From NCBI GenBank assembly GCA_963745835.1, contig CAVUZH010000016.1, positions 32,001 to 96,000 of the forward strand: 64,000 nucleotides of DNA. Direction: 5' to 3'. The notes under the pieces are model-generated. The model ran no database searches. It was not told where the DNA came from and worked only from the letters and a program-made list of their open reading frames with translations. The translations under genes and the position numbers were made by a program. Of this stretch, positions 56,853 through 60,671 are shown piece by piece (the first letter of the stretch is position 1; each line of letters opens with the position of its first letter). This DNA is from an uncultured delta proteobacterium (GTDB lineage: Bacteria > Desulfobacterota > Binatia > UBA9968).

Positions 56853-57848
56853 ATGCCTCGTGAAACGACACTCTCATTGCGCAGCTATATCTCGAGAACT
56901 CTCCTGCTGATTTTATTCAGCTCGTGCAGTGTGCCGGCGCCCTCCGGTTTGGTTCAATTGCGCCCTTTTCAAATCGAGTCGAAGGAGAACCAACGGACGG
57001 AAATCGATGGGCTGATACTGTTGGGCGCTTTCGAACTCCGCTCGCGACATCCGCAATTCGGCGGCATTTCCGGACTGAGCATAGGCGCCGACGGCAGGCT
57101 TTACGCCGTCTCCGATCGCGGCTATTGGCTTTCTGCTCGCATGCGGCATGACAGCGAAGGCGCCCTAGTAGACCTGCTCGATTGGCAAATCAAACCCATT
57201 TTAACCCCGGAAAGAACTCCCACCGATGGACTGCTGACGGACTCGGAAGCGCTCGCCGGCGCGCCGGACGGGTCGTTCATCGTCGGCTTTGAACAGACCC
57301 ATCGCTTGTGGCGCTATCCGCCGCCGCCGATGACGTTCGATTCCCCGGCGCAGGCAATCCCAGCTCCGCACGATCTTGCCAAAGCGCCGCGCAACGGCGG
57401 TCTTGAATGCGTTACCGTTCTCCCCAGCGGAGAAATTCTCACCCTTGCGGAAGAACTGCAAAACAAAGACGGCAGTTTCAAAGGCTGGCTCATCGATGAC
57501 CAGCAAGCGGTGGAGTTATCTTACTTGCCAAGCGCCGGCTTTCGAGCATCGGATTGCGCGGCGTTGCCAAATGGCGATGTCATTGTCCTCGAACGGCACT
57601 TATCGATATTTCTCGCCTTTTCGGCGCGCCTGAAGCTCATTCGAGCTGCGAGCATACGGCCGCATGCTATGCTCAACGGTGAAGATCTGCTCCGGCTCGA
57701 TCCGCCGCTTCGGCTCGACAATTTCGAGGGTATCGCAATACAGGAGGATGCAGCCGGAACTTTGATCTACCTCATCTCGGACAATAACTTCCAGCCGTTC
57801 CAGCGCACACTGCTGTTGCAATTTCGCCTTCCTCGGACCGCTTACTAA
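56853..57848 (+). CDS. esterase-like activity of phytase family lipoprotein (beta-propeller)
   Basis: FGGISGL, SDRG, DSEAL, NGGLE, DNFEGI, ISDNNF..QRTLLLQF. Confidence 0.8.
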   Translation: MPRETTLSLRSYISRTLLLILFSSCSVPAPSGLVQLRPFQIESKENQRTEIDGLILLGAFELRSRHPQFGGISGLSIGADGRLYAVSDRGYWLSARMRHDSEGALVDLLDWQIKPILTPERTPTDGLLTDSEALAGAPDGSFIVGFEQTHRLWRYPPPPMTFDSPAQAIPAPHDLAKAPRNGGLECVTVLPSGEILTLAEELQNKDGSFKGWLIDDQQAVELSYLPSAGFRASDCAALPNGDVIVLERHLSIFLAFSARLKLIRAASIRPHAMLNGEDLLRLDPPLRLDNFEGIAIQEDAAGTLIYLISDNNFQPFQRTLLLQFRLPRTAY

Positions 57849-57876
57849 AGTAATCAGAGGTTGAAAAACTCTCTTC

Positions 57877-57930
57877 ACGGGCTGTTCAAAAGATTTCAGA
57901 GCCGAGGCGCCCGACGTTCGATGAGCTGAG
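57877..57930. repeat. left part of a ~125-bp hairpin/MITE-like repeat interrupted by the IS110
   Basis: Begins ACGGGCTGTTCAAAA, an inverted match to TTTTCAACAGCCTGT at 59487-59501; ends at the AG core 57929-57930. Confidence 0.75.
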
Positions 57931-57945
57931 ACTTTCTATGAGCCC

Positions 57946-57951
57946 TGTCAA
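57946..57951 (-). promoter_or_regulatory. outward-facing -35 box (TTGACA) in the IS right end
   Basis: TTGACA lies 15 nt from the core; pairs with the -10 at the left end on circularisation. Confidence 0.8.
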
Positions 57952-57969
57952 GCCCCATCGATTTTATTT

Positions 57970-59195
57970 TCACGCTGCCTGGCGCAATTTCTGTCGTGCA
58001 ATGTTGGCCAAGTGGTGGGTTTCGTCATAAGGTTTATGATCTCTCCACAGCACAAAAATAATTTTCAACCACTTCGCTCCCAAAGCCCGAAGTGCTTGGG
58101 GATGGCTGTGTCCTCTGGCCCGTTGGTCTCGATAAAAGGCCTTGGCCCACTGGCTGCGGTTTATCGAGATAAAAGCAAACCAGTAGACGGCGTAGCGCAA
58201 TTGTTTGTTACAAGAAAACCGAAACTCAACAATGCGACTCTTGCCACTCGATTTGGTCACCGGGACTGCTCCCGCTTCGGCCTGAAGGTGCTTAAAGGAT
58301 TCCCATCGAGCTGGGGCATCTCCCAGCTCGGCCCAAAGGGCCGGCAGCAACGTTCCGCTTTTCCCTCCCGGCAGCTTCTCCACAAGCCTAGCGGCCGGTG
58401 TAGAGGCGAAAAAACGTTCGACCTTGTCGCTGTACTTCTCAATGCTTCGCAGCGAAGCCTCAAGCTGATCGAGCAGCACTTCGAGCAACTGCGCCTTGGC
58501 TCTGACGACGTGATCGGGAACCACAAGTTGCGGCTTTTTCAGCTCCTCCCACCGCTTGGCACTGCGTGCTTTACCAAGATGAGGATGCTGCTGGGCAAAT
58601 CGGCTCCACTGCTTACGGCTAAGCTTCGAGAGCGCCGTTGGCGTCGAATACTGCTTGAGAAAGTCTACTGCTATACGAGCCTCCAGATCCCCAAAAACCT
58701 CCACCGGTCGAGGATAGTACTCCTTGAGAGTGAACTTGAGCTGATTGAGCAAACGCGTTTTGTGACGCACCATTCTTTGCTGATCCCGGGTAAGCAGCTT
58801 AAGCTCCTGGGCCTGCTCAGAGCTTGGCCGAAGGGGCCTGAGGTGACCGTGGTCGGTTCGAAGAAAGTCCGACAGTACCCAAGCGTCAAAGGGGTCGCTC
58901 TTGGATTGGCTCATGCGAAACCGGTCCCGAGCACGATCCAAGACCTTGGGATTGACCGGATAAACCACCCCCCATGATCCAAAAGAAAATCCACAATGCG
59001 CCCGTGGGGCTTCTCGATCGCCGCCCACAGCTCCACCTGCTCAGCTCTGCTCTGATTGAGCCAATGCGCCAACTCCGCCAGCCCTTCAGGGTTCTCTTGG
59101 ACTTTCATCTCCATTACCTTTATCCCGTTCTCGTCGCCACCGTAGAGCTGGTGTACTCGGTCTGCCCAATCTACTCCCAGATAGTATCGTGGCAC
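57970..59195 (-). CDS. IS110 family transposase/bridge recombinase (~408 aa, 1-nt frameshift near 58970)
   Basis: GVDWA, AIEK, KSDPFDA (DEDD RuvC-like); C-terminal AGAVPVTKSSGKS with the putative catalytic Ser; GTG start with AAGGAGG RBS. Confidence 0.92.
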
Positions 59196-59224
59196 TTTGT
59201 TGTCCTCCTTCTTTGCTTACTTTA

Positions 59225-59417
59225 CTCCAATAGCTGTGAACGGAACGTTAGCCTTATATCGGTCCTCGACGGGACAACTTTCCATAGAACTTTTGACTCC
59301 GTTCTTTTGCTGGTCGGGACAGTCTCAGCTAGATCCTCTAACGGAATCGCGTACGTAAGGTCCTCTAACCAGCAAGCTTCTTGGACGACAATGCAATATC
59401 TATCATCGAGTATGACT
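59225..59417 (-). ncRNA. putative bridge RNA (5' hairpin, target-binding loop, donor-binding loop); ends approximate
   Basis: Two stem-closed internal loops carrying 6-10-nt matches to the target flanks and element ends in the expected orientations. Confidence 0.82.
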
Positions 59418-59422
59418 ACAGT

Positions 59423-59428
59423 AATATA
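59423..59428 (-). promoter_or_regulatory. -10 box (TATATT) at the IS left end
   Basis: Immediately inside the core; gives TTGACA-17-TATATT in the circle junction. Confidence 0.8.
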
Positions 59429-59430
59429 AG

Positions 59431-59501
59431 GCGTACGCTTCAGTACGTTGAAGCGAGTCGGGCGAGCGCAACGAAGGCTATAAGTCTTTTCAACAGCCTG
59501 T
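59431..59501. repeat. right part of the interrupted ~125-bp repeat
   Basis: GCGTACGCTTCAGTACG internal hairpin; terminal TTTTCAACAGCCTGT. Confidence 0.75.
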
Positions 59502-59570
59502 CAGTGCGTTGACACTAATAGGTTTCCTAGAGTAAGCCTGAGCCAAATCGACCATCACTGTGTTCTCAGC

Positions 59571-60671
59571 ATGCTCGATAACCAACCGACCTATATTTTC
59601 GCCGCGGAGTATCTGAAGAACTTTTCCGCTGCGGTATTCATGCACTTCGGCATTTCGGCAGAAGATGCCGCGCAAGCGGCGGATGTGTTGGCAACAAGCG
59701 ATTTACGCGGCATCGACTCTCATGGCGTCGCGCGCCTGCACACCTACTTCGAAATGCTCGATTTAGGCAGGATCAATCCCAGCCCCAACATCCGAATCGT
59801 CCGCGAGAAACACAGCGTCGCAACGATCGACGGGGACAACGGTTTGGGTCTGGTGGTGGCGCCCAAGGCCAATGCCATCGCCATGGACAAAGCCGAACAA
59901 CATGGCTCGGGCTGGGTGAGCGTCTGCAACACCAATCATTTCGGCATCGCCGGCTACTATCCTTTACAGGCGCTCAAGCGCGATCTCATCGGCTGGGCGA
60001 TGACCAACACGACCAAACTAGTGGCGCCGCTGTGGGGCGCGGAGAGAATGCTGGGAACGAATCCGATCGCCATTGCTTTTCCGGGATACGAAGAGCCGCC
60101 CATCGTCATCGACATGGCGACCAGCGCCGTGGCTTACGGCAAAATCGAAATCGCGCTGCGCAAAAAGGAATCCGTTCCGAAAGGCTGGATCGTCGACCGA
60201 GACGGCCGCGACACGACCAATCCGCAAGAGATGATCGACGGCGGCGCGCAACTGCCGCTCGGCTCGGAAAGAGATTTAGGCGGTCACAAAGGTTATGCCC
60301 TGGCCGCGATGGTGGACATTCTCTGCTGCGTGTTGAGCGGCGCCAACTGGGGTCCGTTCGCCCCTCCCTTTGCGCTGCGGCAGGAGATTCCCGAGCGCTC
60401 GGTCGGCAAAGGCATCGGACATTTCTTCGGCGCCATGCAGATCGACGGCTTCATCGACAAAGACGAATTTAAAAAGCAGATCGATGAATGGATTCGAATC
60501 TTTCGCAGCACCAAACCCGCTCCCGGCACCAACGGCCCCCTGATCCCTGGCGACCCGGAGCGAGAGGCGGAAGCCATCAGAAGCAAAGAAGGAATTCCGT
60601 TACTCAAACCAGTTATTGATGACTTGATGGATATATCGAGGAAGACCGGGATACCGTTTGAGATGAAATGA
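59571..60671 (+). CDS. Ldh_2 (malate/L-lactate/sulfolactate dehydrogenase) family oxidoreductase
   Basis: DLRGIDSHGV, NHFGIAG, GTNPIA, DMATS, GHKGY, IPGDPE. Confidence 0.9.
   Translation: MLDNQPTYIFAAEYLKNFSAAVFMHFGISAEDAAQAADVLATSDLRGIDSHGVARLHTYFEMLDLGRINPSPNIRIVREKHSVATIDGDNGLGLVVAPKANAIAMDKAEQHGSGWVSVCNTNHFGIAGYYPLQALKRDLIGWAMTNTTKLVAPLWGAERMLGTNPIAIAFPGYEEPPIVIDMATSAVAYGKIEIALRKKESVPKGWIVDRDGRDTTNPQEMIDGGAQLPLGSERDLGGHKGYALAAMVDILCCVLSGANWGPFAPPFALRQEIPERSVGKGIGHFFGAMQIDGFIDKDEFKKQIDEWIRIFRSTKPAPGTNGPLIPGDPEREAEAIRSKEGIPLLKPVIDDLMDISRKTGIPFEMK

Follow-up and report, generated by a model that had tools for sequence, protein, structure and literature searches.

The closest described systems to the locus considered here are the insertion sequences whose recombinases are guided by a bridge RNA, principally IS621 of E. 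coli. In the published accounts the left guides of its bridge RNA pair with the bottom strand and the right guides with the top strand, where they cover the core and the right arm, and these are followed by two handshake bases (PMC11208158). Pairing of these bases in the post-exchange state promotes insertion, pairing in the pre-exchange state blocks it, and the asymmetry of the handshake thus favours insertion and disfavours excision (PMC11208158, PMC13626964). In wild-type IS621 one pair before exchange becomes three after it, one cognate pair being kept (PMC13626964), and covariation at position 7 over many IS110 orthologues was published as part of the same work (PMC11208158). The same concept appears as a design rule in IS622 and in engineered bridge recombinases, the rule being that donor and target are to differ at positions 6 and 7 (bioRxiv 10.1101/2025.05.14.653916). 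Finally, among solved structures the best sequence match to the recombinase studied here, and a weak one, is that of ISCro4 (PDB 9t56, E 7.4e-9), a likeness known from the recombinase alone.

The window, that is, the whole stretch of 64,000 nucleotides that was analysed, carries on its minus strand, at 57929-59430, an IS110-family insertion sequence with a CT core. Its likeness to IS621 extends over the whole arrangement: the recombinase gene is preceded on its 5′ side by the RNA, in which the target loop comes first and the donor loop second; the core is CT; the right guides are directed to the top strand of the core and right arm; two handshake bases stand 3′ of the core complement; at position 7 the donor T7 faces an A of the target loop and the target C7 a G of the donor loop; the donor loop's second base complements position 6 of its own donor; and exchange gains two Watson-Crick pairs. 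The differences from IS621 are the following: (i) the recombinase, of 408 aa, is only distantly related; (ii) donor and target share a G at position 6, and the pair count passes from two to four, and not from one to three; (iii) one linker nucleotide follows the target-loop handshake, where IS621 has four; (iv) the left target guide does not reach beyond position 7, and that of IS621 (A50-U58) extends over the core as well. Unlike what the IS622 rule prescribes, the element shares G at position 6 between its two partners, and by that rule it is not optimal. We hold it probable, at roughly 0.8, that the 5′ non-coding end of this element encodes an IS621-type bridge RNA with two handshake bases in each loop that match the post-exchange partners and that, by analogy, would favour insertion.

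The ends of the element were set without using the RNA, from the alignment of its copies and from empty copies of the repeat in which it is found. The genome search returned three full copies, that of the window and two more at 99% identity (C14:273430-274981 and C3:1197565-1199120), besides a fragment of 120 nt and some thirty short matches that cover flanks only; in the alignment of the three copies the bounds of similarity fall on identical bases, with the same repeat around them each time, and the left non-coding end shows no differences among the three over its whole length. In an empty copy of the repeat (C18:273120-273151 and 273150-273175) the left and right flanks have two nucleotides in common, CT, and because the two halves of the empty site overlap by these two bases, they place the CT core at both boundaries of an element inserted into a specific sequence, with no further duplication. 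The coordinates of all features are collected in Table 1.

Table 1. Features of the insertion sequence and its surroundings (positions are those of the window; P5, P6 and P7 are positions 5, 6 and 7 of the target or donor).
Feature	Positions	Strand	Basis or remark
Right target flank CAGCT, positions 10-14	57924..57928	-	copy alignment, empty sites
Right CT core copy	57929..57930	-	copy comparison and direct reading
Element right end, left-donor positions 1-7, AGAAAGT	57931..57937	-	P7=57931 (T), P6=57932 (G), P5=57933 (A)
TTGACA, candidate -35 hexamer	57946..57951	-	direct reading
IS110-type recombinase gene	57970..59195	-	domain matches, copy alignment
Donor-binding stem-loop	59238..59303	-	consensus structure
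Donor-loop handshake G (59252), C (59251) and next base U (59250)	59250..59252	-	against target C7, G6
Right donor guide AUAUA (59259-59255) and core complement AG (59254-59253)	59253..59259	-	
Left donor guide GAAAGU	59277..59282	-	same sense as the element's last six bases; second loop, 5′ side
Target-binding stem-loop (basal stem, internal loop, top hairpin)	59305..59378	-	consensus structure
Target-loop handshake A (59323), C (59322) and next base U (59321)	59321..59323	-	against donor T7, G6; U opposite A5
Right target guide AGCUG (59330-59326) and core complement AG (59325-59324)	59324..59330	-	
Left target guide CGUACGC	59349..59355	-	same sense as left-target positions 1-7; first loop, 5′ side
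TATATT, candidate -10 hexamer	59423..59428	-	direct reading
Element's first bases, including right-donor arm TATAT (59428-59424)	59423..59428	-	homologues start alike
Left CT core copy	59429..59430	-	two-nucleotide overlap of empty-site flanks
Left target flank, positions 1-7, CGTACGC	59431..59437	-	P7=59431 (C), P6=59432 (G), P5=59433 (C)

The left target flank CGTACGC adjoins each of the three copies and recurs in 16 empty sites, and the complete 14-nt site, CGTACGC-CT-CAGCT, is present 16 times in exact and unoccupied form in the 7.28-Mb genome, against 0.05 expected by chance, and three more times occupied. Each of these sites falls in the middle part of a repeat of roughly 125 nt whose ends are inverted. 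Around the insertion this repeat is made up of 57860-57928 and 59431-59500 of the window, with the inverted ends GCTGCTGAAAAAG...CTTTTTGAGCAGC, and it recurs at 16 other places in the genome; in its form it bears a likeness to a REP or MITE-like element. The 120-nt fragment (L004, at G000:C14:580170-580290) corresponds to the first 120 nt of the element, cut within the target-binding loop, and adjoins a copy of the same repeat, with a left arm that differs by one base. Nearly the same target, ..GTACGC-CT, is also occupied by the homologues L099-L101 and L104, whose proteins are 73-97% identical.

Homologues were drawn from 68 loci on genome contigs and 80 on metagenome contigs, and the fold was computed on an alignment of 50 non-identical left ends. 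The consensus of these 50 sequences is made up of two stem-loops, each with a basal stem, a large internal loop and a top hairpin, and of its 31 pairs 15 show compensatory changes; the left end thus bears a non-coding RNA with two internal loops, the target-binding one followed by the donor-binding one. The structure is taken from this alignment fold and not from the single-sequence fold of the left end, which is no better than that of shuffled sequences (z -0.83). A scan of 57800-59600 against Rfam, with E up to 1, matched no family, which we read as a property of a library without a bridge-RNA family and not as absence of the RNA, and a search of the element's own genome with covariance model R1 returned nothing beyond the three known copies.

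On their 3′ sides the two internal loops read AGCUG-AG-AC-U (the first) and AUAUA-AG-GC-U (the second), and in the window the guides match over 7 + 7 nt for the target and 6 + 7 nt for the donor, each on the strand expected of it. In the 127 of 149 sequences that could be parsed (148 loci and the window) the target guides vary with the flanks, and the donor guides and the element ends stay constant; the right junctions of the homologues were located through the guides, so that these matches are partly by construction, and the left guides and left arms had no part in that step. The core complement is AG in both loops of 126 of the 127 homologues and TG in both loops of the remaining one (L080), and here both junctions read CA rather than CT, a coordinated core change of natural origin.

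The left target guide is not in one register throughout the homologues. Often it ends in ..CCU and spans the CT core, as does the IS621 guide; that of the window and its near relatives ends at position 7, immediately before the top hairpin, and in alignment A2 (columns 24-35, corresponding to 59349-59355 of the window) position 7 of the target flank falls at column 32, 33 or 34. On the donor side, three near-identical loci (L046, L078 and L084) have T at donor position 5 of the right end and A in the left donor guide, and in L047 both are T.

The initial annotation of the window had assigned two short segments to an IS621-like bridge RNA, as its right-target and right-donor guides, extended at their 3′ ends into bases that match the partner DNA, and the junctions, the fold and the guide matches all bear this out. 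The reverse complement of 59321-59330, AGCTGAGACT, is identical to the plus strand at 57924-57933, which divides into right target (57924-57928), core (57929-57930) and donor end (57931-57933); that of 59251-59259, ATATAAGGC, is identical to the plus strand at 59424-59432, which divides into the left end of the donor (59424-59428), core (59429-59430) and target (59431-59432). In other words, the minus strand from 59330 to 59321, AGCUGAGACU, is the reverse complement of the top strand of the right junction, AGT-CT-CAGCT, and the minus strand from 59259 to 59251, AUAUAAGGC, that of the top strand of the left junction, GC-CT-TATAT, and the 3′ extension of each guide pairs with the non-cognate DNA, in the window and again in more than 100 homologues. 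In the repeat search these two matches are the two longest inverted pairs (I1 and I2) within 57850-59520; since nine other inverted pairs of 9-12 nt are found in the same 1671 bases, an inverted match of 9-10 nt is not rare by itself, and the significance of the two comes from their position at the junctions and from their conservation, not from their length. Once the 7-nt guide matches are given, simple arithmetic puts the chance of five more complementary bases at about 4^-5.

Taken base by base, all four nucleotides that follow the core complements on the 3′ side, two in each loop, pair in the window after exchange with the non-cognate partner, at its positions 7 and 6. The A of the target loop (59323) does not pair with target C7 before exchange and pairs with donor T7 after it; the G of the donor loop (59252) forms a wobble with donor T7 before and a pair with target C7 after. 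The second base is C in both loops (59322 and 59251), and as position 6 is G in the donor (..AGT-CT) and in the target (..CGC-CT) alike, each of these bases pairs with its cognate DNA as well as with the other partner. The total thus goes from two Watson-Crick pairs and one G-T wobble before exchange of the top strands to four Watson-Crick pairs after it, and given the G shared by donor and target at position 6, the gain arises at position 7 only. The suggestion that the handshake bases are set for the post-exchange state consequently holds for the sum, from two pairs to four, and does not hold for position 6, which is paired before and after; that position 6 pairs with cognate DNA before exchange in both loops counts against a post-exchange design.

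How far the same arrangement extends beyond this copy can be followed in the parsed sequences, among which a left flank of at least 7 nt was available in 112 and a recognisable right end in 119; the counts are raw, with shared ancestry left in them, and the 22 unparsed sequences of the 149 enter none of them. The target loop is Watson-Crick complementary to donor position 7 in 118 of 119 loci, to position 6 in 114 (with two wobbles and three unpaired) and to position 5 in 109 (one wobble, nine unpaired), compared with 4, 38 and 41 of 112 for the same bases against positions 7, 6 and 5 of the target flank, their partner before exchange. The donor loop is Watson-Crick complementary to target position 7 in 108 of 112 loci, with the other four in wobble and none unpaired, to position 6 in 44 of 112 and to position 5 in 32 of 112, and against its own donor end it has a wobble at position 7 (118/119) and a Watson-Crick pair at position 6 (113/119), so that the family fixes its second donor-loop base on its own donor and not on the target. 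After exchange there are more Watson-Crick pairs than before it in 105 of 109 loci, equal numbers in four and fewer in none; the passage is from one to three in 64 of the 109 and from two to four, as in the window, in 37. Ten of the 22 unparsed sequences match covariance model R1 (25 sources, 13 hits) and were kept out of the counts; their alignments show the same motifs around both handshakes, with the exceptions of L072, which has C as the third target-loop base, and L069, which has G as the second donor-loop base. The complementarity is therefore conserved across homologues.

An alternative to a handshake of two bases in each loop is that the one of the target loop has grown to three, A-C-U with donor T7, G6 and A5, made possible by the linker of a single nucleotide, while the second base of the donor loop stays on its own donor. 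A target-loop handshake of three bases was already raised as a possibility in the initial annotation, and U59321 is indeed complementary to donor A5 in the window, as U is opposite A5 in 109 of 119 homologue loci; moreover, only one nucleotide lies between the two-base handshake and the stem, where IS621 has a linker of four (U83-U86). If the alternative were true, the direction would depend on position 7 and on a position 5 specific to the donor, and sites for the whole family would be confined by the fixed donor-loop G to those with C, and rarely T, before the CT core. The partners are otherwise invariant, though, and conservation alone explains such a match. In the 11 loci in which either side has changed, the pair is kept by a double change in one (L060, C opposite G) and as a U-G wobble in another (L070), and it is lost in the other nine (four U-T, three of these near-identical, four C-A and one A-A), which does not agree with a maintained third pair. 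The donor loop argues in the same direction. Its U (59250) does not match target C5 and does match A5 of its own donor, and any gain would thereby be cancelled: the G-C-U of this loop meets its own donor with a G-T wobble, a C:G and a U:A pair, and the target with G:C and C:G pairs and a U-C mismatch, so that, with all three bases counted, the fit of this loop to its own donor is no worse than that to the target. In most homologues the equivalent base is G, able to pair with the C at the closure of the internal loop, which identifies it as a scaffold position. A handshake of three bases is thus unlikely; most likely the third base of the target loop is a linker rather than part of a pair that is maintained.

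With the handshake of two bases in each loop retained, the question becomes what holds its partners constant. At position 7 both of them are nearly invariant in the 127 parsed homologues, and there is no true covariation; the comparison of homologues is uninformative at this position precisely because neither side varies. The family-level observation that speaks most for the pairing is another: all 112 flanks have C or T at target position 7 (84 C and 4 T among the 88 distinct targets, as against 163 C among the 440 bases at positions 1-5), next to positions 1-6, which vary freely, and a strict C or T is what a fixed G in the RNA can accept. It may be that position 7 is conserved for another reason, such as a protein contact or a preferred site of 3 nt. 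Of the 88 distinct targets 38 have G at position 6, a base that makes up 78 of the 440 at positions 1-5; relatedness is not corrected for in this comparison, which shows a preference and not a rule. Four loci carry G as their second donor-loop base, and target position 6 is C or T in all of them, compared with 30 of the 69 loci in which that base is C (Fisher p 0.04), a weak hint that the second donor-loop base might covary with target position 6.

An explanation in which direction owes nothing to the complementarity, A-C-U and G-C being a fixed scaffold and donor T7 and G6 and target C7 being held by something else, for instance by contacts of the recombinase beside the cleavage site, would agree with two partners that are nearly invariant and show no covariation for pairing and with a second donor-loop base that does not track target position 6, but it is very improbable in view of the strict C or T at target position 7 amid free neighbours, the enrichment of G at position 6, the four loci just mentioned (weak as they are) and the structure and mutagenesis of IS621, in which, as published, the same positions pair and set the efficiency.

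If the IS621-type handshake is accepted for this element, the course of events would have been as follows. The target loop would present guides for CGTACGC on the left and for CT-CAGCT on the right, and the donor loop guides for the element's own ends, AGAAAGT and CT-TATAT; the gain in pairs after exchange would pull the exchanged strands onto the non-cognate loops, as it is described to do in IS621, favouring insertion and leaving the integrated element as a poor substrate for excision. Because the recombinase is only distantly related to that of IS621, we infer this mechanism by analogy, and the effect on direction would come here from position 7 alone. The mechanism itself has already been published (PMC11208158, PMC13626964), and the present element is a further example of it which leaves its understanding unchanged. 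What it adds is that the handshake rule known from IS621 can be read from the sequence in a distantly related family of recombinases, and that this family offers a natural set of 88 distinct targets, with position 7 fixed and position 6 only preferred, which would be of use in choosing or programming bridge recombinases of this family.

The recombinase gene of the window is divided between two overlapping frames of the minus strand, 58911-59195 and 57970-59028, on both of which PF01548 (the DEDD domain of IS110) is matched, with E values of 1e-18 and 1e-5; a match to PF02371 (Transposase_20, E 1.6e-10) completes the combination of a DEDD RuvC-like domain with a C-terminal Tnp domain. In the alignment of the three copies a deletion of 1 nt in the C run at 58968-58973 breaks the frame in the window copy alone, the other two copies of the genome having an intact recombinase of 408 aa, and relatives' contigs in four public runs have the extra base at the same run. 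The window copy has thus a broken recombinase gene and an intact RNA region, and it could move only if other copies supply the recombinase. Five residues, D9, E61, D101, D104 and S317, are invariant among 18 recombinase homologues and would be the catalytic ones; the IS621 recombinase in the PDB is a distant match (E 4.4e-8) over residues 242-395, about 150 residues. Within the gene, AGAAAGTCT at 58658-58666 of the plus strand is the inverted partner of the right end and core at 57929-57937 (pair I7 of the repeat search), probably by chance.

The contigs of the four public runs contain no joint of the right end to the left end such as a circle would give, in a search of contigs only, and where their joints leave out about 1500 bases, what they show is the repeat in its empty form, which does not prove excision. 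Two of the runs (X15 and X16), metatranscriptomic libraries labelled as ice metagenome, have contigs that cover near-full-length relatives, the RNA region included, at about 95% identity; these are no demonstration of transcription, as they may derive from DNA carry-over. When the right end is joined to the left end, TTGACA and TATATT come to stand on either side of a spacer of 17 nt (15 nt and the CT core), a near-consensus candidate promoter that would form only in the circular element, and among the 96 homologue loci in which it was counted TTGACA is the commonest hexamer at that spacing.
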